From sequence record OR062947.1: 64,000 nucleotides of DNA, one strand, 5' to 3'. The stretch comes from Escherichia phage 348Ecol098PP. Of this stretch, positions 1 to 61,965 are shown piece after piece. Within the stretch, counting starts at the first letter, position 1. Each line of letters begins with the position of its first letter. The position numbers and the translations under genes are program-made. Below the pieces are notes generated by a model. It made no database searches. It was not told the origin of the DNA and was given only the letters and a program-made list of their open reading frames with translations.

Positions 1-1
1 T

Positions 2-532
2 ATGATTACTATTGGTGAAATCCTTCGTGTATCTCCTGCTTCTCGTTCTAAAGCTGCAGGTCGTCTGGTTGAAGTAGCAGGGCTTCGTACTAACGGCATG
101 GGACGTGTTAAAGAAGTTAAAGTTCGAATCATCCCCAGTTTTGGCGGACAAGATGCCCAGTATGCTTACGTAAGTCCTAAATTCCTGGAAAAACATATAC
201 GAGTCCAATTTGCTTCAAGCGAAGAAGTTGCACCTGCACACTTTGCTTCTGTTGAAGAAGTTGAATCACGTGATGGATACGTATGTGAATCCACTGAGCC
301 TAATGTACAGTTCAAATGGGCCCTTTGCAAAGGCGTTGAATTTATAACCGATAAAGAATTTGATTACATCGACGAATACGGTTATCCAAGCAAAACTGAT
401 ACTATGTGCGGCTTCATCAGCGACCAATGGGTTGAAGATGGTAAAAAGCTATACAATATTGTATTCTTAGGTGACTTCCGAGTTGTTGAAGAATCTGAAA
501 TCACTCGCTATGTGTCTCCACGTAAAGCTTAA
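2..532 (+). CDS. hypothetical early protein, tandem paralog A
   Basis: 176-aa ORF, ATG at 2; shares SxASRSKxAGxLVEV and GFISDQWVEDGxKLYNIVFxGxF motifs with the adjacent ORF 542-961; its promoter would lie upstream of the window. Confidence 0.5.
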   Translation: MITIGEILRVSPASRSKAAGRLVEVAGLRTNGMGRVKEVKVRIIPSFGGQDAQYAYVSPKFLEKHIRVQFASSEEVAPAHFASVEEVESRDGYVCESTEPNVQFKWALCKGVEFITDKEFDYIDEYGYPSKTDTMCGFISDQWVEDGKKLYNIVFLGDFRVVEESEITRYVSPRKA

Positions 533-541
533 GGAATTATT

Positions 542-961
542 ATGAATATTGCAAATCTCTCTATTGGTGATTATGTACACGTATCGGATGCTTCTCGCTC
601 TAAAGTTGCTGGTAAGTTGGTCGAAGTTCTTTCTGTGAGTGATCCGGTTTTTGGACGTAACGAAGTTAAAGTTAGTGACGCCGATGGTAACATTGGTTAC
701 GTTAAAAGCCAGTTCATCGAGCCAGAAGAACGCGCGTTCAAATGGAAACTGGGCAGATCAGTTTTAGTTGTAAAAGACTACGAGTTCACCATTGCCGCTG
801 CGACAGATGGAACACCGTGGACAACGAATCAAGTTGCTGGTTTTATTTCGGACCAATGGGTAGAAGATGGTGTTAAGCTTTATAACATCGTTTTCGCTGG
901 ACAGTTCATGGTAGTTCCTGAGTTCCAAATCAAAAAATATTGTCCAGCATCTTTTGCATAA
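542..961 (+). CDS. hypothetical early protein, tandem paralog B
   Basis: 139-aa ORF, RBS aagga upstream; clear paralog of ORF 2-532. Confidence 0.55.
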   Translation: MNIANLSIGDYVHVSDASRSKVAGKLVEVLSVSDPVFGRNEVKVSDADGNIGYVKSQFIEPEERAFKWKLGRSVLVVKDYEFTIAAATDGTPWTTNQVAGFISDQWVEDGVKLYNIVFAGQFMVVPEFQIKKYCPASFA

Positions 962-965
962 AGTT

Positions 966-1013
966 GTTTACTTCTCCTCTGGATTTGGTATTATATCCAT
1001 ATCAACCAGAGGA
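966..1013 (+). promoter_or_regulatory. T4-type early promoter inside a stem-loop
   Basis: GTTTAC at 966-971, 17-nt spacer, tattat at 989-994; 9-bp inverted repeat ctcctctgg (974-982) / ccagaggag (1005-1013) brackets the -10. Confidence 0.5.
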
Positions 1014-1020
1014 GAATAAT

Positions 1021-1545
1021 ATGTTAGTTTACCGCGTAGAACGTAGTTTTTGTACTCAACGTGAATCATTACCAGGAATTGCTATCAAAGACGGTAAAGC
1101 CGTCAGAATTTGGGAAACCTCTTGGAATAAAGAACCTCGTTCGCCATACGGTTGGTCGGGCACCGACAACTCTGAAGAAACATGGGAGTTCCTTGATAAG
1201 CATGGAATACTCTCAGGTAACTTCTACCATCATGGCGACAACTATAATGTCCCTAATCGTCCTACAGTAAATGAAGACAAACTCCTTGAACAAAATATCT
1301 TAAGATACTATAGAATTGATCACTCATTTGAATTGAGTGAAGATTGGGCCCAAGGGTTCTATTTTGGATTTGAAAGTGTTGACGCGGTTTATGCATGGTT
1401 TGATGACCAGGTGGATGTTGAACTCTTGAAAGCTAAAGGATACTACATCGCGGTCTATGAAGCGCCTGATTTCATCCTCGGAAGTTGTCAATTAATGTTC
1501 AGACGTTCATTGGCAGAACAAGTTGATTTTATTTTGCTAAAATGA
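1021..1545 (+). CDS. hypothetical early protein
   Basis: ATG at 1021 preceded by gaggag RBS; the track ORF 940-1545 begins with a non-ATG codon inside the promoter, so the start is trimmed to 1021. Confidence 0.55.
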   Translation: MLVYRVERSFCTQRESLPGIAIKDGKAVRIWETSWNKEPRSPYGWSGTDNSEETWEFLDKHGILSGNFYHHGDNYNVPNRPTVNEDKLLEQNILRYYRIDHSFELSEDWAQGFYFGFESVDAVYAWFDDQVDVELLKAKGYYIAVYEAPDFILGSCQLMFRRSLAEQVDFILLK

Positions 1546-1582
1546 TGTACAACAACTATGGTCTATGATACTATAGACCTAT
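1545..1582 (+). promoter_or_regulatory. early-promoter-like element with inverted repeat
   Basis: ATGTAC -35-like at 1545-1550, tatgatactatag -10 region; inverted repeat ggtctat/atagacc at 1557-1581. Confidence 0.35.
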
Positions 1583-1602
1583 CAAAACAAGAGGAGAATA
1601 TT

Positions 1603-1830
1603 ATGAAACGTCAAATCATTAAAAACGTAACTACTGATTCAAACATCGATGAGTTTGAAGATGTTCTGTTTAATCCTGATTTAGTTGTTGTACAGAAAAA
1701 CTGGACTGAATTTTTATGCTACACTGAAGTGGTTTACGTTTACGAAAAACTAGGCGATGAAATGCCTATCTATGGTATCTTCCGTGAAATCACTGAAAAT
1801 GGTACAACTTATTGGAAGGAAACTTACTAA
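1603..1830 (+). CDS. hypothetical early protein
   Basis: ATG at 1603 after gaggag RBS; the upstream part of track ORF 1558 overlaps the promoter. Confidence 0.55.
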
Positions 1831-2243
1831 TGGCTAATAAATTCCGCGTTAACTCATGGTACCAATTTATAGATAAACGTGCCCAAGAAGAGTTTATTAA
1901 AGACCACACTGATAATGGGATTTATGCACGACGTCTTGGCATGGAACCATTTAAAGTATTAGATGTTGACCATCTCGGACGTCCTACTAAAATTTTAACA
2001 TCTACTGGCACGGTTGGATACGCAACAGGCGGTGATATCCTTGATGAAAACTTTATCTGGCTCTCCACGAATGAAGCAGAGTTCTTTGACGAAGTTGAAA
2101 ATCCATATCAAGCGTCCGAAGAGCAAGATTCTAGTGAACTTGACGAATTGTCTGAATTTCCGGTGATGACGATTACTATCGAAAATAACGACCAGGCATG
2201 GTCTTTGTATCAAATGTTGAAAGCCCACTTTAAGGAACAATAA
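1830..2243 (+). CDS. hypothetical acidic early protein
   Basis: ATG at 1830 overlaps the previous stop (TAATG); acidic C-terminus. Confidence 0.5.
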
Positions 2244-2422
2244 TGCCGTTATACGACTATAAATGTCAATCTGAAGATTGTGGTCATGAATATGAAAAAA
2301 TTAAAAGGATTTCTGAACGAGAAAACGATGTTTGCCCTGAATGTCATCGTCTGTCTACTCGTCGGGTTTCTGCTCCTAAACATGTGAACGGTGGTTTTTA
2401 CGACTTACTTAAGAAGGGTTAA
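2243..2422 (+). CDS. small zinc-ribbon protein (CxxC...CxxC)
   Basis: 59-aa [40 protein letters not shown]..., start overlaps the upstream stop (TAATG); below the ORF-track size cutoff. Confidence 0.45.
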   Translation: MPLYDYKCQSEDCGHEYEKIKRISERENDVCPECHRLSTRRVSAPKHVNGGFYDLLKKG

Positions 2423-2424
2423 TT

Positions 2425-2850
2425 ATGGCTTTTAAAGGTTTTGAAGTTGGTAAGAAATATCGTATTATCAAAGGACAGGAAGATAATTTCTTGAGAATTC
2501 TTAATACGACTGGTAAGCGTCTTAATACTAATCTGCATACTACTTTATTGTCCAAAGATTTTATTGTGGAAGAGATGATTGGTTACGGCGTTTCGGTTAT
2601 TGCTGTAGAAGCCGTAGGCGATTATGGCCGAACTATTCATAGTATGCAAGGTGATATTCTGCTTTATGGTGCAGAATTTAAATTCTTTGAAGAAGTTCCG
2701 GAACCAGATACAGCTGTCGATTTCAAAAAAGGCTCTATAGAATTTGTTGATGGTTCGGTGATCGTATCAGGCGATGTGGTCATTACAGTTAAAAGTGAAC
2801 AAGGGCGTTTAGCTGCAATTGATGCACTTCAGAAAATTAAATTTAAATAA
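2425..2850 (+). CDS. hypothetical early protein
   Basis: 141-aa ORF followed directly by a terminator hairpin. Confidence 0.55.
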   Translation: MAFKGFEVGKKYRIIKGQEDNFLRILNTTGKRLNTNLHTTLLSKDFIVEEMIGYGVSVIAVEAVGDYGRTIHSMQGDILLYGAEFKFFEEVPEPDTAVDFKKGSIEFVDGSVIVSGDVVITVKSEQGRLAAIDALQKIKFK

Positions 2851-2868
2851 GGGCTTCGGCCCTTTTTG
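2851..2868 (+). terminator. rho-independent terminator (UUCG tetraloop)
   Basis: gggcTTCGgccc followed by ttttt. Confidence 0.6.
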
Positions 2869-2891
2869 CTTTAGATTTCGGATGATAGAAT
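2867..2891 (+). promoter_or_regulatory. putative MotA-dependent middle promoter for gene 39
   Basis: MotA-box-like tgcttta at 2867-2873, 12-nt spacer, tagaat at 2886-2891, 22 nt before the gene 39 ATG. Confidence 0.35.
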
Positions 2892-2913
2892 ACCTTCATA
2901 ACGAGGAGACAAC

Positions 2914-4731
2914 ATGATTAAAAATGAAATTAAGGTATTGTCAGATGTAGAACATATTAAGAAACGTAGTGGTATGTATATTGGTTCTTCTGCTAAAGAA
3001 GCACATGAGCGTTTTTTGTTTGGTAAATATCAACAAGTTGAATATGTTCCTGGTCTGGTTAAATTAATCGATGAGATTATTGACAACTCGGTTGATGAAG
3101 CTATTCGTACATCATTTAAGTTTGCAAATAAAATTGATGTGCAAATTAAAAATAATCAAGTTTCGGTGGAAGATAACGGACGTGGTATTCCTCAAGGTTT
3201 AGTTACCGACCAAACAGGTGAACAAATTCCTGGGCCTGTAGCAGCCTGGACTATTCCAAAGGCCGGTGGTAACTTTGGTGATGACTCTGAACGCAAGACT
3301 GGTGGTATGAACGGCGTCGGGAGTAGTTTAACTAATATCTTCTCTACGTTGTTTACAGGCATCACGTCAGATGGCGAAAATGAAATCACTGTTAACTGTT
3401 CAAACGGAATGGAAAACAAATCATGGTCTTCTAAGAAATCTAAAGGTAAAGGCACTAAAGTAATCTTCACTCCTGATTTCACTTCATTTGAAGAGCATAA
3501 TTTATCTCAAATTTATTTAGATATTACTTTAGACCGACTTCAAACATTGGCAGTCGTTTATCCTGATATCAAGTTCACATTTAATGGTAAAAAGGTTGAT
3601 GGTAATTTTAAACGATTTGCTAAACAATTTGGTGAAGATAACATCATTCAAGAAAATGATAAAGTCTCTATAGCATTCACAACATCACCAGATGGCTTCC
3701 GTCATTTAACTTATGTGAATAACATCCATACTAAAAATGGTGGCCATCATGTTGAATGTGTAATGGATGATATCTGCGAACATCTTTTGCCCGGTATTAA
3801 AAAGAAATATAAGGGTATTGAAGTCACTAAAGCTCGTGTTAAAGAATGCCTCACAATGTTGATGTTTATTAGAGACATGAGCAACATGCGTTTTGATTCT
3901 CAGACTAAAGAACGTTTAACGTCAACGTATGGTGATATTCGTAATCATATCCAATTAGATGCTAAGAAAATTGCTCAGGCACTTCTTAAAAACGAAGCCT
4001 TGATTATGCCTATTGTTGAAGCCGCATTAGCTCGTAAATTGGCGGCAGAAAAGGCTGCAGAAACTAAAGCAGCTAAAAAGGCAACTAAAGCTAAGGTTCA
4101 TAAACATATTAAAGCTAACCAATGTGGTAAAGATGCAGATACGACATTGTTCTTAACAGAAGGTGATTCTGCAATTGGTTATCTCATTGATGTTCGTGAC
4201 CGTGAACTACACGGCGGATTCCCATTACGTGGTAAGGTGATGAATAGCTGGGGTATGTCATATGCTGATATGATGAAGAACAAAGAGCTCTTTGATATCT
4301 GTGCTATCACGGGTCTTATTCTTGGTGAAAAGGCAGAGAATACGAACTATCGTAATATTGCAATTATGACCGATGCCGATCATGACGGTCTTGGAAGTAT
4401 CTATCCGGCTTTGCTTGCTTTCTTTAGTAATTGGCCTGAATTGTTTGAACAAGGACGTATTCGCTTTGTTAAAACACCTGTAATTATTGCACAAATTGGC
4501 AAAGCTCAAAAATGGTTTTATACTGTAGCTGAGTATGAAGAAGTTAAAGATACACTGCCTAAGCATAGTATTCGATACATCAAGGGATTAGGCTCCCTTG
4601 AAAAGTCAGAATATCGTGAAATGATTCAGAACCCTGTGTACGACGTAGTTAAACTTCCTGAAAATTGGAAAGAACTCTTTGAAATGTTGATGGGTGATGA
4701 TTCAGAACTTCGTAAAGAATGGATGTCCTAA
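2914..4731 (+). CDS. 39: DNA topoisomerase II large subunit, uninterrupted (T4 gp39 plus gp60 equivalent)
   Basis: 605-aa ORF with GHKL ATPase and Toprim motifs (NGRGIP, DADHDG); single ORF as recalled for T2-type phages, not split as in T4. Confidence 0.9.
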   Translation: MIKNEIKVLSDVEHIKKRSGMYIGSSAKEAHERFLFGKYQQVEYVPGLVKLIDEIIDNSVDEAIRTSFKFANKIDVQIKNNQVSVEDNGRGIPQGLVTDQTGEQIPGPVAAWTIPKAGGNFGDDSERKTGGMNGVGSSLTNIFSTLFTGITSDGENEITVNCSNGMENKSWSSKKSKGKGTKVIFTPDFTSFEEHNLSQIYLDITLDRLQTLAVVYPDIKFTFNGKKVDGNFKRFAKQFGEDNIIQENDKVSIAFTTSPDGFRHLTYVNNIHTKNGGHHVECVMDDICEHLLPGIKKKYKGIEVTKARVKECLTMLMFIRDMSNMRFDSQTKERLTSTYGDIRNHIQLDAKKIAQALLKNEALIMPIVEAALARKLAAEKAAETKAAKKATKAKVHKHIKANQCGKDADTTLFLTEGDSAIGYLIDVRDRELHGGFPLRGKVMNSWGMSYADMMKNKELFDICAITGLILGEKAENTNYRNIAIMTDADHDGLGSIYPALLAFFSNWPELFEQGRIRFVKTPVIIAQIGKAQKWFYTVAEYEEVKDTLPKHSIRYIKGLGSLEKSEYREMIQNPVYDVVKLPENWKELFEMLMGDDSELRKEWMS

Positions 4732-4756
4732 GCTCCTTCGGGAGCTTCATTTTAAT
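4731..4756 (+). terminator. rho-independent terminator
   Basis: agctccTTCGggagct followed by a T-rich tract. Confidence 0.55.
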
Positions 4757-4773
4757 TTTAATAAGGCTTAATT

Positions 4774-5874
4774 ATGAAAGTTATGTTTATCCCATCTCGT
4801 GCAGTCCCATTTAACCCAGAACGTGTACAAGGTGGTCTTGAAGCAGTACATTTAAATGTGTTGAAATATCTTGTGTCCATCGGTGCTGATATTGATTATA
4901 TCGGCTTTGATAATGACACATTTGGTGATTGGAAGGTTAATCATCATCCTGTTGGTCATCTGACTAAATTCAGTCTAGGTATGAGTTATACTATGGCTCG
5001 TAAGATTGTTGAACTGGCCGGCATCCATGAATACGATTTTGTTGTTACTATGGAACCGACTAAACTAACCGTTCAGGCAATTAAAGACGCAGGTCTCTCT
5101 AAAGTTCATAAGAATTTTATGGCAACACCATTTGAACCTGTATCTCGTGGCATTGTTCAAATTTGGGACCAGACTATTCAAATTCATAAGAATGGCGGTA
5201 AGAGTTATGCTCCTACTAAAGCCTTCCGTGAATTTGAACGCAAATATTGTTATATGACTTCAGGTCTGACTGACAAAATCGATTATGATTATTGGCGAGC
5301 AAATCCGTTGTTTGAAGCCGAAGATTATCCGGTTATTTGTTTGAATGAGAAACCTGAAGTTCTTCCGGCGACGGATCTGATTATTAGTGCACAACGTTAT
5401 GACACTAAAATGCGTCGTACTGATGTTGCTCTTGAAGCGATTAAAGCACTAGGCGAAAATGGTGCAGGATACTGTCCAAGCAAATGGGCGCCACCAGCTA
5501 AATATCCTGTTATTATCGATGCTCCACACAGTGAAATCATGGAACGTCTTAAAACAGCTAAAGCACTTATTAATACGTGTCCTGACACAGGTACGGTAGA
5601 GAATAGTTCTATTGAAGCCATCTCTAAAGGTGTCCCTGTAATCCAGTTAGTTTTTAAGGATTATCCTCATGCGACATTCGAATACGACCCAGATACTGTG
5701 CGTGTAGAAATTGATTCCTCTACTCCTAAGAAAGAAGTAGTTGCGCTTTACACAAAAGCTGTATTAGAATTCACTGACACATACGAAGCTCGAGTTAAAC
5801 GTGCTGAAGCAGTATGGAAGAAGTATAACCGAGATGCAGTTGTTGCGATGTGGGATAAAATCTTCACAGCGTAA
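4774..5874 (+). CDS. putative GT-B fold glycosyltransferase (family 1/4-like)
   Basis: 366-aa ORF; N-terminal MFIPSRAVPFNPERVQGGLEAVHLNVLKYL resembles the GT4 GG-x-E start, C-terminal TGTVENSSIEAISKGVPVI resembles the EA-x-G-PVI nucleotide-sugar motif; function inferred. Confidence 0.5.
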   Translation: MKVMFIPSRAVPFNPERVQGGLEAVHLNVLKYLVSIGADIDYIGFDNDTFGDWKVNHHPVGHLTKFSLGMSYTMARKIVELAGIHEYDFVVTMEPTKLTVQAIKDAGLSKVHKNFMATPFEPVSRGIVQIWDQTIQIHKNGGKSYAPTKAFREFERKYCYMTSGLTDKIDYDYWRANPLFEAEDYPVICLNEKPEVLPATDLIISAQRYDTKMRRTDVALEAIKALGENGAGYCPSKWAPPAKYPVIIDAPHSEIMERLKTAKALINTCPDTGTVENSSIEAISKGVPVIQLVFKDYPHATFEYDPDTVRVEIDSSTPKKEVVALYTKAVLEFTDTYEARVKRAEAVWKKYNRDAVVAMWDKIFTA

Positions 5875-5966
5875 ATCCTGAATAGCCTGAGGCACTATTA
5901 CACATAAGATGATAGATTATATGGTCTTTAGTAATAGTGCCCTAGGAATCTACTGAAGAGAATATT

Positions 5967-6167
5967 ATGAGAACATATAACGTGGACTTGGAACTTTTTG
6001 ATAAAGCGGTGCTCCGGGAATTCCGGCTTATCCAAAGATTTTTTGATATCGAATCAGCAGAGTCCTTTAAAGAACGCTTTAAAGAAATTCGATATAAAAT
6101 ACAAACCGATACAGCTACTAAAGAAGAACTTCTCGAAGTAGCAGAAATTTTTAAACGTAACTTGTGA
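5967..6167 (+). CDS. small protein upstream of rIIA (rIIA.1-like by position)
   Basis: 66-aa ORF with gaagag RBS, immediately upstream of rIIA. Confidence 0.5.
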   Translation: MRTYNVDLELFDKAVLREFRLIQRFFDIESAESFKERFKEIRYKIQTDTATKEELLEVAEIFKRNL

Positions 6168-6179
6168 TGAGAGAAAAAT

Positions 6180-8393
6180 ATGATTATTGAAACGGCTAAA
6201 GAAACGATTATTGGTTCAGGCGGTAAGAGCACAGCATTCACTATTCAAGGCAATAGCAAAGTTTATAAGATTTTGTCTAATGACCTTTATACAAACAAAG
6301 AATTGGCTTGTGTACGTGAATTAATCACAAACTGTATCGATGGACAAATTCTTAACGGTTGCACTGATAAGTTTATTGTTCAGGCTCCAGGTCGTTTAGA
6401 CCCACGTTTTGTAGTTCGAGACTTTGGTCCTGGTATGAGTGATTTCACCATTCGAGGTAATGACGAAGAGCCAGGAATCTATAACTCATATTTTGCTTCA
6501 ACTAAAACATCGAGTAATGATTTCATTGGTGGATTCGGACTCGGCTCTAAAGCTCCACTAGCATATACCGATACGTTTAACCTTACGTCTTATCACAACG
6601 GTGAAGTTCGTGGTTACGTAATCTACCAAGATGACACAGGTCCACAAATTAAGCCAACCTTTGTAGATAAGATGGGTCCTGATGACCGTACGGGTGTAGA
6701 AGTAGTTGTACCGGTTAACCCAGAAGATTTTGAAAAGTTCGCATCTGAAATTGCATATGTTATGCGTCCTCTAGGTGATATTGCAGAAGTTCGCGGTGTT
6801 AAAGATATTAAATACTTTCCTGAATTTGACGATGTATATTTGGCCAAGGAAGCTCCATGGGGTGAACGTGGTAATATCATGGCCGTTTATGGTGGTATTG
6901 TATATCCAATCGGAAGTGTTATTAAAGAACAAACATGGATGATGACACGATGCACTACAGCTTATATTAAATTCCCAATGGGTGAACTAGATGTTGCTCC
7001 GTCTCGCGAAGCATTGTCATTTGATAAACGTACAGTAGCAAATATCCATAAACGCGTTGCAGAAATCGATGCTAAATTGTTCGCTGAAGATTCTAAGAAA
7101 TGGATTGATTGTAAATACCCACGACATGTGTTCCGCGAAATTGATTCTCTTGGCTATACCGCTCGTAAATACATGGAAAAGGCCGGGTCTAATATTGAAT
7201 CACTGAAATACTCTAAAGAACAACTAACTTATTCTGAGTTGTACAAACGTTTTAAAATGGGACCTGAGTGGTGTAATCTTGGTGTCGTATACGATATCGT
7301 TGAATCCCCTCGTCTTCGTCGTATTCGTGAAAGTGGTAGCTCATCATCAACCATTTCAATTAACAGCCTGATTGGCATTAACATTAAAAACGTTGAAATT
7401 GTTATTGACGATGTTAAGGGACGCGTTCCATTAATGCGAGCTCTTAATTCAATTGAAATGTCTAAAGACGAGGTTAAATTATCCGGTAAAGTTCCACGCG
7501 GTTTTGGTAAAAGCGTACTATTCGTTGACCCTACAGACGAAGATGCAATGAAACTTCTGGAACGCCTTAAAGTTATCTTTGATGGCGACAACATTAACAT
7601 ATACAAGACTTCAGAGCTTTTACAAATCGTTAAGCCATGGATTGAAGTCAGGAAACGGACTAATGAGCCTCGTCCTAAATCCCCGAGTGCTCATCGATTC
7701 TTTAAGAATGAAAACGATGTTTGGGTATCAGAAGACCTCTTTATTCCGGCAAGTGAAGCAGATGAAATCCAAGGTTATGCTATAGTTCGTAATCGTTCTA
7801 ATGCTGAATGTCTTGACGCAGATAAAGGTTGGTTGAACTATGACTCCAATTTCTTGACCCGTATTGCTGATTTGTCAGGTATTAAAGAGTTCACTGTAGT
7901 TCGTCCACAGATTGCTAAGAAAGTTCGTAAACTTGGTGAAGTAGAATGCTTGTTCGAAAAATCAATTAATGACTATATTACGCTAATTGATAAAGTGGAT
8001 TATGATGAGTATGTATCACCAAGTCGTAGAGCACAGCCTTATTTGAATCATATTACTCGTAACGAAGAGCTTAACTTCCTTAGTAAGTATTTTAGCTCTA
8101 AGAACAAAGAAATCAGTAAAGACTTTGCAAAACTCTCAACAGTAAATAATCGTTGGGGATGGAATCGATTCGCAGGTGCTACTAATACAGACCTGAATAA
8201 GAAGTTAGAATTGTGTGCTAAAATTTTCGATAAGCTTAAAGATAATGCTTACGATAATGATGATAAAATGGTTATTGAATTCGAAACCAATTATCATATT
8301 GTGTCAGAATACATGGGACGACGTGGTACTCTTTCCAAAGAACAGGTCGCTCAAATCGTTAAATTCGTGAAGGCCGTGGAAGCGGCCAAATAA
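6180..8393 (+). CDS. rIIA: rIIA membrane-associated protector protein
   Basis: 737-aa ORF; N-terminus MIIETAKETIIGSGGKS...LYTNK...RELITNCIDG matches the recalled T4 rIIA start with its GHKL-like ATPase motif. Confidence 0.85.
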   Translation: MIIETAKETIIGSGGKSTAFTIQGNSKVYKILSNDLYTNKELACVRELITNCIDGQILNGCTDKFIVQAPGRLDPRFVVRDFGPGMSDFTIRGNDEEPGIYNSYFASTKTSSNDFIGGFGLGSKAPLAYTDTFNLTSYHNGEVRGYVIYQDDTGPQIKPTFVDKMGPDDRTGVEVVVPVNPEDFEKFASEIAYVMRPLGDIAEVRGVKDIKYFPEFDDVYLAKEAPWGERGNIMAVYGGIVYPIGSVIKEQTWMMTRCTTAYIKFPMGELDVAPSREALSFDKRTVANIHKRVAEIDAKLFAEDSKKWIDCKYPRHVFREIDSLGYTARKYMEKAGSNIESLKYSKEQLTYSELYKRFKMGPEWCNLGVVYDIVESPRLRRIRESGSSSSTISINSLIGINIKNVEIVIDDVKGRVPLMRALNSIEMSKDEVKLSGKVPRGFGKSVLFVDPTDEDAMKLLERLKVIFDGDNINIYKTSELLQIVKPWIEVRKRTNEPRPKSPSAHRFFKNENDVWVSEDLFIPASEADEIQGYAIVRNRSNAECLDADKGWLNYDSNFLTRIADLSGIKEFTVVRPQIAKKVRKLGEVECLFEKSINDYITLIDKVDYDEYVSPSRRAQPYLNHITRNEELNFLSKYFSSKNKEISKDFAKLSTVNNRWGWNRFAGATNTDLNKKLELCAKIFDKLKDNAYDNDDKMVIEFETNYHIVSEYMGRRGTLSKEQVAQIVKFVKAVEAAK

Positions 8394-9695: not shown

Positions 9696-10172
9696 ATGAA
9701 GGTGAAGATTGCTGACACTGCTCGGTATTCCCTGAGCCAAAATCCTGGCCAAAACAAAGAAGATGTAGTTCGACGTTGTAAGGTTGCGGTCTTTGCAGAG
9801 TATGTAGTAGCAAATTGGCTAGACGGATATGTTAATAAAGGTATTGAAGATGTAGAAGACCCGTACACGTATGCATGGGACGTGTTAGCTCATCCTAAAT
9901 ACTGCGGGTTGCGTGTAGAAGTCAAGACACACCAGATAGATTCTAAATGGATTTCGGTTACCACAGGATACAGCGGTGATTATCCAGGTGGTAATGGAAT
10001 CAATATAGGGCCCTTCTTGAACCATCGAGTCGCAGATTGCATTATTATATTAGATGTCAAAGAAACCTCACCTGACGTCTTCTCTTATTCTATAAAGTTC
10101 GTGGGAGACCATGAAGACCTAAAGAAAATCGTCCGCAAGAGCAACTACAACGGGTGGTATCTTCAACTTTAA
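9696..10172 (+). CDS. hypothetical early protein (positional denB candidate, unverified)
   Basis: ATG at 9696 right after the upstream stop; track ORF 9552-10172 would overlap the upstream ORF by 128 nt, so the shorter start is preferred. Confidence 0.4.
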   Translation: MKVKIADTARYSLSQNPGQNKEDVVRRCKVAVFAEYVVANWLDGYVNKGIEDVEDPYTYAWDVLAHPKYCGLRVEVKTHQIDSKWISVTTGYSGDYPGGNGINIGPFLNHRVADCIIILDVKETSPDVFSYSIKFVGDHEDLKKIVRKSNYNGWYLQL

Positions 10173-30234: not shown

Positions 30235-30261
30235 GAGTATCTGTAAATTGCCGAAAAAGTT

Positions 30262-30290
30262 GTTTACTTCTTCCCTGGATGTGTTAGTAT
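30262..30290 (+). promoter_or_regulatory. T4-type early promoter
   Basis: GTTTAC at 30262-30267, 17-nt spacer, tagtat at 30285-30290. Confidence 0.5.
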
Positions 30291-30319
30291 AGACCTATCA
30301 ACAACATGAGGAAATCAAA

Positions 30320-30724
30320 ATGGAAATCGGAAAATCTTATATCATTAACCCTTTATTTAAAGATGACTTTGTTCAAGAAGCACCACACAATAACGCTAAG
30401 ATGTTAAAATTGATTGAACTCCACGGGCCTAGTTTTGTTGTAAACGGAATGGAACCTGATTATGATAGCGATACGTCAAACGTAGTAAGTGTAACTATGG
30501 AAGATGGTACTGTATGTTCTGCCGGTGGTGAAATTGAAACTTATTTTGAGATTTATCCTGACGAGTTCAAATACTTTATTGAGTACTTTACTGAGGTAAC
30601 TTTAGAAAAGCCTCAACCTACTAACGAAGGTATAACTTTAGGTGTAACAAAAATCCATTGTATCGTAGATGAAACCAACGTCGACGAAATCATCAAACTT
30701 TTGCAAAAAACTTTTAAAAAGTAG
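30320..30724 (+). CDS. hypothetical protein (frd.3 position)
   Basis: 134-aa ORF with gagga RBS. Confidence 0.55.
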   Translation: MEIGKSYIINPLFKDDFVQEAPHNNAKMLKLIELHGPSFVVNGMEPDYDSDTSNVVSVTMEDGTVCSAGGEIETYFEIYPDEFKYFIEYFTEVTLEKPQPTNEGITLGVTKIHCIVDETNVDEIIKLLQKTFKK

Positions 30725-47267: not shown

Positions 47268-47299
47268 GTGCGTTTAGGGCAGAAAAAGTTTAAAAAGAT

Positions 47300-47328
47300 G
47301 TTTACTCTCCTGTAGGATGTGTTACTAT
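47300..47328 (+). promoter_or_regulatory. T4-type early promoter
   Basis: GTTTAC at 47300-47305, gtgttactatag -10 region. Confidence 0.5.
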
Positions 47329-47370
47329 AGACTTGTACCACCTAATCGATAAAACAAACCGGAGAACAAA

Positions 47371-47739
47371 ATGAAAATCAATCTGAACTCATACATCAAA
47401 TGTAAAGACCACGACGGTTATAAAGCTATCGAAATTAAAGAATTCCAGTGGATGTTATACAAAGAGCAATTTGAGTTCGTAGGTTGTATGACCCCTGAAG
47501 GACCTTCAGATGATTTCTCTTGGAAAATTGTGTTAGCAAACTTTTTCACAGGTGACACATACGAATTAAAAACTATTATTACCGGTAAAATTCGTTCAGA
47601 AACATATGTTGACGAAGAAACTGGTTACTCTGAAGATGTTACATGGTATCAAAATGGACGCATTACAGCAGATAACCTGATCGAAAAAATGAAAGCCAAA
47701 GGTGTTTTAAATTTAGACAATTGGATTAAAGTTGCATAA
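47371..47739 (+). CDS. hypothetical protein
   Basis: 122-aa ORF with ggaga RBS. Confidence 0.55.
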   Translation: MKINLNSYIKCKDHDGYKAIEIKEFQWMLYKEQFEFVGCMTPEGPSDDFSWKIVLANFFTGDTYELKTIITGKIRSETYVDEETGYSEDVTWYQNGRITADNLIEKMKAKGVLNLDNWIKVA

Positions 47740-47743
47740 AACA

Positions 47744-47772
47744 GTTTACTTTGGTACAGGTTATGTTATTAT
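47744..47772 (+). promoter_or_regulatory. T4-type early promoter inside a stem-loop
   Basis: GTTTAC at 47744-47749, tattat at 47767-47772; inverted repeat ggtacagg (47753-47760) / cctgtacc (47776-47783). Confidence 0.5.
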
Positions 47773-47813
47773 AGACCTGTACCAACAAACAACTTAAACA
47801 TCTGGAGAATAAA

Positions 47814-59422: not shown

Positions 59423-60542
59423 TTTTAACCTTAACTGGGTTAACAGGTTCTAACACCATTGAGTTGGTAAACATGTACAGATGAGTTTGTGAGTTGTTAT
59501 TTGATAACTCATGAATAACTTCATCTACGTAAAATTCGGATTTGAATTGGTTCTTTTGGTCAACAAATATAATTTTAGTAGCAGGAGTTATGTTAAAATT
59601 ACCTGTAGTAGTGCATTTAGCATATCCGTCATATTGAGCCATTGTCTGAAGACGACTTGCTTCTTCAAATCCATTACGATAGGTCATTTCCGAATATCCA
59701 CCGGATCTTGACACAAGAATAGCATTATCACCATCGCCTGTAACAATAACCGGAATAGATGTATCTAAAAATGAATGAGCGAATATCGTGGCGTTTTTAA
59801 TAGGGTCTCTTGTAAATTGGTTAGCTTTAGTCATCCAGGTGAAATCCCATACTAATGGATACTCAAGCTCTTGAATATACTGACCTACGGTATTTGGCTC
59901 ACCTACAATCATCTTAATGCCTTCCTGACCAATAAGAGTATCGTAGTCAATCATGTTTACGCCTAAAATATCTTGCCATACGAATACGAACTTATCACTC
60001 GCTGTAGCAAGTCCTAATTCTCTGACATATGCCAAATAATCATCAAATGTGCTTGTCCAAGGAATATCAGGAACATAAGCATTAATAGTGTTTATTGGCG
60101 GAGTAATTAACGTACGGTCTTTATATATGACACCTAACATTTCACGTATAGATTCTCCTGCGTCTGGGAAGAATGGTCGCCCAAATTTAAGGTTCTCTAT
60201 AGAATGTATTGTTCCAAGCTCAATTGCAATAATATTGTCACCTTTTGAGTCCACAGACACAGAATAATGTCTACATCCGTAAATTCGAGTTCTAACTTGG
60301 AGAGGTGTGTTTGAATTTGAAACAGAGATTTGGACTATCTGTCTACCATCCATTTTAGTGTGGATGTTTTTAGTGTCATAAAATTGAAGAATCCCTTCAT
60401 TTCTTCCATATAGCGAATCTCGCATGGTTAAAGTTGTTATTGTTGCCGCGAGTTCAACGTATCTATTTTCTTGCCAAGCCGAATAATCTTGATATAATTT
60501 AACGCTTAAGTTAGGATATCCTGGACGTTGGAATACTGTCAT
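59370..60542 (-). CDS. 27: baseplate hub subunit gp27
   Basis: 390-aa ORF; [12 protein letters not shown]...[29 protein letters not shown] matches recalled T4 gp27. Confidence 0.9.
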
Positions 60543-61291
60543 TTTTTATGGTCCTTTTCTACTAATGTTAAAGCAATACCACGTTCAACAGGAATCATTT
60601 GCATAATAGAATCCAATGTGTATTGACTCTTTACTAGTGAATGGTTTATCTGATAGAATGTAAAAATCTCATCAGGGTTAACTAACAATTTAAAAACCTC
60701 TAAGATATCAGTATATGTTTTAACATGACGTTCACAACAACCTAATCTAAGGGTCAAATTAATAGGGTTCATAGAAGCAATAACCTTCTCGAGCGAGTCA
60801 ATGTCTATTGCTTCTATTACTTGGATTTGGTTCTCTTCAGTCAAATCATTCCATGGATACCATTCATCATTATAATATATTTCTTTTATGTTTTCACTTA
60901 TCATTAATGCTTTGTTGTCATAAAACTTTTCAGGGAAAGAAAAACGTATTTTTATACCAGCAACATCAAGTTCAGGTTCGACTAGTTCTTTTTGATATAT
61001 CTCAAATGGAGCAGTTTTTTCTTTAGAGCATTTAGGGCAAGTGAAAATAACGGGAACTTTTGTTTTGCCTATAGAGCCTGCAAAAACTTGCAGGAATATA
61101 AATGGTTGCCATGTTTTAGGGTACTCGCCAAAATAATCATCAATCAGATCGGCAATTATTTCTTTTTGTTCTTGCGGCGAACGATGTTCGATATCATTTC
61201 TAACTAGTAAAAAGTCTCTATAATCCGCCACAGTGAACGGCTTAAAACGATGAACACCATCCGGTAATTTACAACGAATTATATTAGCCAT
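60539..61291 (-). CDS. 51: baseplate hub assembly catalyst gp51
   Basis: 250-aa ORF (T4 gp51 is 249 aa), divergent from gene 26. Confidence 0.75.
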
Positions 61292-61308
61292 AATTACTCC
61301 TTTTCTAT

Positions 61309-61320
61309 TATTTATAAATA
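61309..61320. promoter_or_regulatory. divergent overlapping late promoters (TATTTATAAATA)
   Basis: Plus-strand tataaata at 61313-61320 serves gene 26; its reverse complement at 61309-61316 serves gene 51. Confidence 0.6.
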
Positions 61321-61338
61321 CACAATAAAGGAGTTAAC

Positions 61339-61965
61339 ATGTTCAAATATACGTTTACCGTACGTTTAGGCGATAAAGAAGTGAATTGTAGAGCCTTTAC
61401 TTTAAAAGAATATTTAGGACTCATAGGTGCGCGGGCTACCGGTACTATTGAATCAGCAGTGAACAATATTATCACTAATTGCTCTAACGCTAAAAACTTG
61501 ACTAAACAAGAAGCCGAGTTATTGTTGGTAAATCTGTGGGCACATTCATTAGGTGAAGTGAATCAAGAACACACCTGGAATTGTTCCTGTGGGCATTCAT
61601 TTCAAGTCTATATGAATTTATTGCACACTCAATTAGATGAACAGGCCGATCCCTGGTATTCGTTCAGTGGCATTAAAATTAAGTTCCGTCAACCTAAATT
61701 ATTTGATGATAAAAATATCGCATTAATGATTGCTTCATGTATTGAGGCCGTTTTTGTCAACGGAGAGTCCATCCCTGTTGAAGATTTAACTGAAGCAGAA
61801 ATAAACGACCTTTACGGCCTTATAACAGAAGATGACATGATCAATATTAAAAATCTTTTGGTATCGCCATCAATTTATCTGGCAACCCCTATCAAATGTC
61901 CCAAATGTGGGACGTCACACGTTCACACAATACGAGGCCTCAAAGAATTCTTTGAGTTACTATAA
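61339..61965 (+). CDS. 26: baseplate hub subunit gp26
   Basis: 208-aa ORF, same length as T4 gp26; aagga RBS. Confidence 0.75.
   Translation: MFKYTFTVRLGDKEVNCRAFTLKEYLGLIGARATGTIESAVNNIITNCSNAKNLTKQEAELLLVNLWAHSLGEVNQEHTWNCSCGHSFQVYMNLLHTQLDEQADPWYSFSGIKIKFRQPKLFDDKNIALMIASCIEAVFVNGESIPVEDLTEAEINDLYGLITEDDMINIKNLLVSPSIYLATPIKCPKCGTSHVHTIRGLKEFFELL

Follow-up and report, generated by a model that had tools for sequence, protein, structure and literature searches.

The subject of this analysis is a stem-loop that encloses the promoter -10 region and the Shine-Dalgarno (SD) sequence of motB.2, a gene near the left edge of a 64,000-nt stretch of DNA from Escherichia phage 348Ecol098PP (sequence record OR062947.1), which as a whole we call the window. 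Many genomes of Mosigvirus (the RB69/JS09/ST0 group of the T-even phages) match the first 3 kb of the window at 95–97% identity, and judged by sequence the window belongs to Mosigvirus (RB69/JS09 group). Using the annotations of ST0 and RB69 together with Pfam and PHROGs, we assigned the gene order as two consecutive motB-like genes, motB.2, cef, goF, 39.2, 39.1, and the topoisomerase gene 39, all on the + strand; these genes correspond to an early region that T4 transcribes counter-clockwise. The features at the motB.2 locus are the following.

959–961, + strand: TAA stop codon of the upstream MotB-like gene (list of open reading frames, ORFs)
966–971, + strand: GTTTAC, the -35 hexamer of an early promoter of the T4 type, sigma-70 (sequence; promoter scan; consensus TTTACW, PMC4122927)
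972–982, + strand: 5' arm TTCTCCTCTGG, the anti-SD, within the promoter spacer (perfect 11-nt inverted repeat; RNA fold; covariation)
985–991, + strand: 5' half of the inner stem, TTGGTAT, overlapping the TGn and the first -10 bases (RNA fold)
986–994, + strand: extended -10, TGgTATTAT, with the hexamer at 989–994 (sequence; promoter scan)
999–1005, + strand: 3' half of the inner stem, ATATCAA (RNA fold)
~1001, + strand: predicted transcription start, an A seven nt past the -10 (promoter geometry)
1006–1016, + strand: 3' arm CCAGAGGAGAA, containing the SD GAGGAG at 1009–1014 (inverted repeat; RNA fold)
1011–1021, + strand: RegB/S1-like site GGAGAAUAAUA, a 10/11 match to GGAGRAYARAA (sequence; consensus from PMC1702504)
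1021–1545, + strand: motB.2, 174 aa (phrog_1106, 1.9e-45; RB69 annotation motB.2; tblastn to T4 motB.2, 34% identity)

The promoter has a 17-nt spacer between the -35 (966–971) and the -10 hexamer (989–994), and a generic promoter scan gave the 966–994 site a score of 9/12 with an extended -10; the window was also scanned for GTTTAC-N16-18-TATAAT-like sites. It agrees with TTTACW-N17-TAYWAT, the consensus reported for the early promoters of T4 and PST (PMC4122927), and the A/T-rich GCATAAAGTT precedes the succession of GTTTAC, TATTAT, GAGGAG, and ATG. Superimposed on this promoter is a perfect 11-nt inverted repeat (972–982 and 1006–1016) with arms 23 nt apart, on which a second stem (985–991 with 999–1005) stacks to give 18 bp in total. 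The folding energy of RNA 966–1023 is -22.5 kcal/mol compared with -9.07 +/- 2.66 kcal/mol in 200 dinucleotide shuffles (z = -5.05), none of which is as stable, and the 18-bp hairpin is still the dominant fold in a 111-nt RNA context. The 64-kb window holds four perfect inverted repeats of at least 11 nt with a loop of 3–40 nt, against 0.82 +/- 0.86 in shuffles. A search of 700–1800 against Rfam returned no family match, only two sub-threshold hits attributable to chance (E = 0.54 and 0.99). An RNase III site in the 18-bp helix is possible in principle.

The whole SD (1009–1014) lies inside the 3' arm (1006–1016), with the ATG at 1021, as had been proposed in a sequence-only reading of this DNA that preceded our analysis. 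Of the features in that reading, the 5' arm ctcctctgg is at 974–982 and the ATG at 1021, whereas the 3' arm ccagaggag occupies 1006–1014 and not 1005–1013, a shift of one base; the stem-loop it described is present, but the repeat it noted was too short, the structure consisting of perfect 11-nt arms plus a 7-bp inner stem. The whole 5' arm is located in the spacer that separates the -35 from the -10, that is, upstream of any start that the motB.2 promoter could use. From promoter geometry we infer a start at ~1001, which would give a 20-nt leader, AUCAACCAGAGGAGAAUAAU, and RNA 1001–1080 is predicted to have no significant structure (-8.6 kcal/mol, z = +0.99). The earlier expectations that the 5' arm is upstream of the start and that a transcript from the gene's own promoter has a free ribosome-binding site (RBS) are thus borne out in prediction, as is the expectation that read-through RNA, meaning RNA that enters from upstream, is able to sequester the RBS: in a 155-nt context the SD is paired with a probability of ~1, and opening the region from the SD to the AUG costs 16.5 kcal/mol, compared with 3.1 kcal/mol in the short leader. 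We ranked the 65 gene starts in the window that have an SD by how likely this SD is to pair with bases located more than 20 nt upstream, and motB.2 comes first of the 65 (pairing probability of 1.0 vs. a median of 0.32). The control, cef, which lies 580 nt downstream and has the same SD, shows opening costs of 1.7 kcal/mol in the long and 0.8 kcal/mol in the short RNA. In related phages the motB.2 costs in long and short RNA (kcal/mol) are 18.6 and 3.1 for RB69, 13.6 and 5.8 for T4, 19.4 and 3.0 for IME08, 13.0 and 3.4 for CkP1, 15.1 and 3.3 for PEi20, 17.6 and 4.0 for IME523, and 17.2 and 5.8 for PM2. Stem-loops also accompany about ten further early promoters of the window, but these wrap the -10 region only and leave the SD free.

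Homologs of motB.2 are found in about 700 phage records, from which we compared leaders of six lineages: Mosigvirus, Tequatrovirus (T4), Dhakavirus, Karamvirus CkP1, Kanagawavirus, and Pectobacterium phage PM2. A single-protein scan of viral contigs yielded three near-identical loci, and the diversity came from an alignment-based scan and a phage collection. A hairpin that contains the SD is significant in all six lineages (z from -3.0 to -6.2), with arms UUCUCCUCUGG and CCAGAGGAGAA in Mosigvirus, UCCUCGGU and ACUGAGGA in T4, UUCUCCUCAUG and CAUGAGGAGAA in Dhakavirus, AUCUCCGUUUGG and CCAAACGGAGAU in CkP1, GACCUCC and GGAGGUC in Kanagawavirus, and AUGCCUUCCUA and UAGGAGGGUAU in PM2. The GGA is invariant, and the pairs around it differ on both sides, for example CUGG/CCAG (Mosigvirus), CGGU/ACUG (T4), CAUG/CAUG (Dhakavirus), GUUUGG/CCAAAC (CkP1), and the Kanagawavirus arms just given. 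G.U wobbles occur in the hairpins of T4, Entb45, PM2, and locus L015 of our collection, which points to + strand RNA rather than DNA as the molecule that pairs. Because plain MAFFT put the 5' arms of T4 and CkP1 out of register, we took the pairs from folds computed independently and also aligned the leaders with a covariance model. In this alignment of 13 distinct leaders, 94.6% of the cells are paired (77.8% in shuffles), 10 of the 18 pairs show two-sided changes (6.5 in shuffles), and the covariation score is 0.434 (0.175 in shuffles), none of these three values being reached in 500 shuffles; the score falls to 0.01–0.07 when the 3' partners are slid by 1–3 columns. In the inner stem, helix 2 of the alignment, four of the seven pairs have changed on both sides. 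The anti-SD arm occupies the spacer between -35 and -10 in four lineages and lies between the -10 and the predicted +1 in Kanagawavirus and PM2, such that it is upstream of the predicted start in every lineage (6/6); the gene's own transcript therefore could not form the helix. A helix that shifts and changes in sequence, yet keeps the SD and excludes its 5' arm, is what selection for promoter-dependent translation, rather than for a mere terminator, would predict from these comparisons.

The cassette is also kept at different genomic positions. The motB.2 gene follows dexA in T4, Dhakavirus, and Kanagawavirus and lies between motB and cef in Mosigvirus and CkP1, from which we conclude that the gene was relocated together with its promoter and hairpin. 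In phage F2 (locus L011, NC_054913, 801–869, compared with window 960–1026 and 1539–1608) motB.2 is absent, and the cef promoter is chimeric: its 5' half comes from the motB.2 promoter and brings the anti-SD arm with it, its 3' half comes from the cef promoter, and the two meet in the -10 region. Since motB.2 and cef have the SD context AGAGGAGAA in common, F2 cef has gained an anti-SD hairpin, of 9 bp (-14.1 kcal/mol, z = -2.7; opening cost of 10.2 vs. 0.8 kcal/mol).

Based on the position of the arms, we posit that the element is a T4-type early promoter cassette of the PeSL type, a class of promoter plus stem-loop cassettes in T4-like phages (PMC2839356, PMC4122927), with the anti-SD of its own gene built into the promoter. 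Polymerase starting at ~1001 would produce a 20-nt unstructured leader with a free GAGGAG, and motB.2 would be translated right after infection. The same free SD would be a near-consensus target of RegB/S1, such that messages from the gene's own promoter would soon be inactivated, and early promoters are themselves shut off within a few minutes. Transcripts entering from upstream would carry 972–1016 and fold into the 18-bp hairpin, burying both the SD and the RegB site; on such read-through RNA motB.2 would be silent and the downstream cistrons would still be translated. The net effect would be that MotB.2 synthesis is tied to the gene's own promoter and limited to a short immediate-early pulse. 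We think it reasonably likely that the element is a translational gate of this kind, with the SD free on own-promoter RNA and buried on read-through RNA and with RegB ending the first class. The promoter-dependent translation of motB.2 that the sequence-only reading had put forward is, at the level of sequence, supported but not proven; the precedent of T4 late promoters and insertion sequence (IS) elements, the PeSL-type cassette, and the SD as a near-consensus RegB site were absent from it. As a wider and more tentative proposal, which we regard as doubtful, the promoter-embedded anti-SD may be a conserved T-even device that makes a one-shot pulse, RegB destroying the sole translatable mRNA and later read-through RNA being untranslatable and RegB-resistant at this site, and the hairpin may insulate a mobile gene cassette in the manner of IS elements.

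Published work on T4 bears on several steps of this scheme. RegB with S1 needs 11 nt of single-stranded RNA with the consensus GGAGRAYARAA, and structure blocks cleavage (Durand et al., PMC1702504); structured GGAG sites in T4 resist RegB (PMC1702504, PMC3014915). The RB69-group phages have RegB activity, and of the GGAU sites RegB cuts only two in vivo, one of them being the SD of T4 motB.2, where an A-rich stretch comes after the GGAU (PMC1702504). In our RNA folds the short leader leaves the RegB-like site GGAGAAUAAUA of the window single-stranded, and the long RNA takes it up into a helix. With respect to read-through, ST0, whose sequence reaches 1.5 kb past the left edge of the window, has two early promoters upstream of the motB-like genes, and a terminator scan found no + strand terminator-like site between these promoters and motB.2 in ST0 or, in the window, between the 542–961 gene and 1021. 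Read-through RNA across the element is therefore plausible as judged from these scans. In T4, no middle promoter is listed between 5349 and 10058, the nearest mapped ones being at 10058 and 11138, upstream of dexA (Hinton review, PMC2988021), so that middle-period RNA over motB.2 and motB.1 must originate upstream of dexA. The label-free quantification (LFQ) values of Wolfram-Schauerte et al. (PMC9697503, Table S3; all x1e6) for T4 MotB.2 are about 46, 45, and 50 at 3, 5, and 30 min, respectively. MotB.1, whose cistron begins 10 nt after motB.2, rises from 20 at 3 min to 300 later, MotB from 207 at 3 min to 1750 later, and GoF from 149 at 3 min to about 1000 later (PMC9697503). The flat values suggest that MotB.2 synthesis stops before 3 min although later RNA must cross motB.2. 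T4 MotB has its own early promoter and a classic RegB site, with no hairpin reported. The flat MotB.2 curve fits a block on read-through RNA, whereas RegB and early-promoter shut-off give no such curve for MotB.

We are nonetheless cautious, as several points weigh against a translational gate. The MotB.2 LFQ values in T4 are low and include some zeros (PMC9697503), and the flat curve could arise from detection limits or protein turnover. The start at ~1001 follows from promoter geometry, and the presence of read-through RNA from the absence of terminators; if the hairpin or Rho stops most upstream transcripts, the block would matter little. Covariation proves a conserved helix and not its purpose, and the covariance model fitted the alignment to the structure, which favors pairing; for this reason the table of independent folds is the safer evidence. 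In more distant homologs the arrangement is missing: that of Serratia SP1 has a promoter without a hairpin (z = +0.57), and those of Pseudotevenvirus have no promoter of their own. As for direct mapping, neither motB.2 nor T4 coordinates 8180–8184 appear in the accessible part of the supplement to a T4 differential RNA sequencing preprint. The T4 early promoter P8.1, mentioned in a single sentence of the Hinton review (PMC2988021), may by its map position be the motB.2 promoter.

Terminator and RNA-protection functions for the hairpin are not mutually exclusive with a translational gate. It seems to us rather unlikely that the main role of the hairpin is to terminate or attenuate transcription of the upstream operon and that it overlaps the SD incidentally, the 60-nt intergenic space leaving no other room. 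The stem is indeed long and stable, one PeSL stem-loop of RB49 cut downstream lacZ expression as much as rrnB T1 (PMC2839356), and record OL960576 (phage SA79RD, locus L041, 657–701, corresponding to window ~977–1021) annotates the same hairpin as a rho-independent terminator, with TransTermHP/WebGeSTer as the source. However, the hairpin annotated in SA79RD ends at the start codon without a U tract, and no U tract follows the stem elsewhere, the next bases being UAAUAUGU in the window, UAAUAAAA in T4, CAAAAUGA in IME08, and AUAUGCGU in PEi20; the window tail has U at 4/8 positions, none of them next to the G-C part of the stem, and the tails of the other lineages are A-rich. We accordingly rejected the hairpin as an intrinsic terminator, in which a U run directly follows a G+C-rich stem, and our terminator scan of 1–6000 does not call the site. 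The conserved feature is inclusion of the SD and not the tail, as the helix of Kanagawavirus and PM2 has moved and yet kept the SD, and of the other early-promoter hairpins of the window, eight enclose the -10 alone and leave the SD outside. Furthermore, T4 MotB.1, encoded just downstream, keeps accumulating up to 12 min, and no middle promoter is known to lie nearer to it; transcription therefore probably passes through the hairpin. We find it quite unlikely that the hairpin exists to protect the long polycistronic RNA, by hiding GGAG from RegB or by blocking 3' exonucleases and thus stabilizing the upstream message, which would spare the downstream cef-goF-39 messages from cleavage-triggered decay and make silencing of motB.2 a side effect. 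The 10/11 match of GGAGAAUAAUA to the RegB/S1 consensus, together with the inhibition of RegB by structure and its need for single-stranded RNA (PMC1702504, PMC3014915), is in keeping with such a role; against it, other early genes that belong to this transcription unit, namely cef here and motB in T4, expose RegB-type SDs without a hairpin, so that protection is not a general need.

The remaining explanations have far less to recommend them. Translational coupling, in which ribosomes that finish the upstream gene melt the stem and are handed over to motB.2, would be suggested by the upstream stop codon (959–961) being just 10 nt from the foot of the stem and by the Pseudotevenvirus homologs, which lack a promoter and have a small stem overlapping the end of the upstream gene. 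However, a ribosome at a stop codon covers ~12–15 nt downstream, and one at 959–961 would extend to ~971, touching the base of the stem without entering it; the stem of PEi20 begins 27 nt past the dexA stop; and in the T4 proteome DexA-region proteins rise while MotB.2 stays flat (PMC9697503). We consider coupling very improbable on these grounds and give equally little credence to an action of the inverted repeat in DNA, as a recombination hotspot for cassette shuffling, as a cruciform, or as a site that a dimeric protein binds to control the promoter. The chimeric promoter of F2, with motB.2 missing, is the product expected from PeSL-mediated recombination (PMC2839356), but the repeat is not required for its crossover, which falls in the -10 region that the two promoters share. 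Furthermore, the arms differ wholly in sequence between lineages while pairing is kept, which is unlike a protein site, and the G.U positions pair in + strand RNA only, being C.A on the other strand and mismatched in DNA. Finally, the early promoters at 47300 and 30256 also have CT-rich spacers weakly complementary to their SDs, as a chance match between a pyrimidine-rich spacer and a purine-rich SD would produce; this explanation, to which we attach practically no probability, is refuted by the comparative data, namely independent covarying versions in six lineages, alongside the z score of -5 with 0/200 shuffles and the first rank among 65 starts.

The genes and the promoter that flank the motB.2 cassette are the following.

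2–532, + strand: motB-like gene (Pfam/PHROGs; ST0/RB69 annotation)
542–961, + strand: second MotB-like paralog, upstream of motB.2 (ORF list; Pfam motB PF17613, 7.8e-25; phrog_1671)
1548–1605, + strand: next early promoter cassette, before cef, with which the motB.2 cassette recombined in F2 (8-bp hairpin around the -10; SD context GAGGAGAATATTATG, the same as that of motB.2)
1603–1830, + strand: cef (ST0/RB69 annotation; Pfam; PHROGs)

The window thus has two MotB-like genes in tandem (2–532 and 542–961) compared with one in T4. Topoisomerase gene 39 is a single 605-aa ORF at 2914–4731. In T4 the gene is divided into 39 and 60, which an insertion separates. A 366-aa ORF (4774–5874) comes after gene 39, and a perfect 11-nt inverted repeat with a 29-nt loop (5891–5941, GGCACTATTAC and GTAATAGTGCC) sits in the gap between the end of this ORF and the ORF that starts at 5967. 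For MotB.2 itself, Pfam gave no match, PHROGs gave phrog_1106 alone, which is a family of unknown function, a sequence search of the PDB was without a match, and a single-sequence AlphaFold model had a pLDDT of 41, too poor for structure searching.

Other stem-loops and related cassettes occur elsewhere in the window. The perfect 11-nt repeat at 47744–47790 (TTGGTACAGGT and ACCTGTACCAA) surrounds the -10 (TATTAT) of an early promoter and is of the ordinary PeSL type with the SD outside, and that at 60771–60817 (ATAGAAGCAAT and ATTGCTTCTAT, 25-nt loop) lies inside a - strand gene (60539–61291). The covariance model of the motB.2 leader also matches the early-promoter regions 30256–30325 and 47294–47376 (E = 1.7e-6 and 0.004), whose CT-rich spacers (TTCTTCCCTGG and TCTCCTGTAGG, respectively) have weak complementarity to their own SDs; these are possibly related cassettes whose anti-SD either decayed or did not arise at all. 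At 61286–61335, a palindromic element (ACTCCTTT ... TATTTATAAATA ... AAAGGAGT) is common to the divergent genes 60539–61291 (- strand) and 61339–61965 (+ strand), and the late-promoter motif TATAAATA can be read on both strands in its loop. The SDs of these two genes are mutually complementary (pairing probabilities of 0.82 and 0.78), and transcripts that start outside the late promoter would therefore bury the SD. Judged by its sequence, this element is the classic late-promoter form of the same gate, doubled.

A gate at motB.2 would give a concrete reason why synthesis of the T4 early protein MotB.2 is confined to the first three minutes, with its neighbors on both sides still being expressed, and it would extend the textbook T4 mechanism of hairpin plus internal promoter from late to immediate-early promoters. 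If this is true and general, part of the so-called PeSL "terminator" stem-loops would really be translational insulators, and some auto-annotated or generic PeSL terminators in T4-like genomes would more likely be translational gates. Such a reading affects genome annotation and the interpretation of phage RNA-seq and proteome time courses, and the element would offer a compact natural part of about 50 bp for decoupling the expression of a gene from upstream transcription.

The arrangement has parallels in several known systems. IS10 and IS50 are reportedly protected from external promoters by fold-back inhibition, a finding credited to Davis, Simons, and Kleckner in 1985. Fold-back protection of IS10 is also cited in a passage of PMC13181058, and in Bacillus subtilis sigG a hairpin on read-through RNA hides the RBS (PMC5942855). 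As in IS10/IS50 and sigG, where a sigma-70-type or own-sigma promoter starts transcription inside the inverted repeat, native transcripts of motB.2 would be unable to form the hairpin, and as in IS elements the promoter, hairpin, and gene appear to move as a unit. Unlike motB.2, these are not phage genes, their hairpins keep transposase low or time a sigma factor, and no nuclease site lies on the SD.

The PeSL features seen at motB.2 are an A/T-rich upstream region, a sigma-70-like early promoter, a stem-loop over the -10, an SD, and an ATG, as well as gene loss and relocation (F2 without motB.2 and a different motB.2 locus in T4, Dhakavirus, and Kanagawavirus). However, the PeSL papers assign the stem-loops a terminator or attenuator function and draw the SD as a module of its own farther downstream (the word "ribosome" does not occur in the text of PMC2839356), whereas the motB.2 stem is longer by 11 bp and the SD is its 3' arm. 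Like the RegB/S1 sites of T4 (PMC1702504), the window site combines GGAG and a following A-rich stretch within an early gene's SD; it differs in being a predicted site that is masked by structure in one transcript class.

In T4 itself, the logic of a hairpin with an internal promoter has been proven for e and I-TevI and is also accepted in the case of soc and 49; all four have late promoters (PMC3014915). As at motB.2, the SD and/or AUG of these four genes is held in a helix on upstream transcripts, their own promoter lies in the DNA encoding the 5' strand, and own-promoter transcripts, which lack that strand, are translated; the phage group is the same and the hairpins are of similar size. 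In contrast, their promoter is of the late type (TATAAATA) whereas that of motB.2 is an immediate-early sigma-70 promoter with the anti-SD in the -35/-10 spacer, and unlike theirs the motB.2 SD doubles as a RegB site. The effect in these genes is a delay until late infection, and the prediction for motB.2 is the opposite, expression only at the start of infection. In the searchable literature neither an early-promoter form of the mechanism nor the motB.2 hairpin turned up, an older mention (Miller 2003; Liebig & Rueger 1989) being possible. The mechanism proposed for motB.2 is already known in kind, from T4 e, soc, 49, and I-TevI, from IS10, and from sigG, and its early-promoter form would be new.

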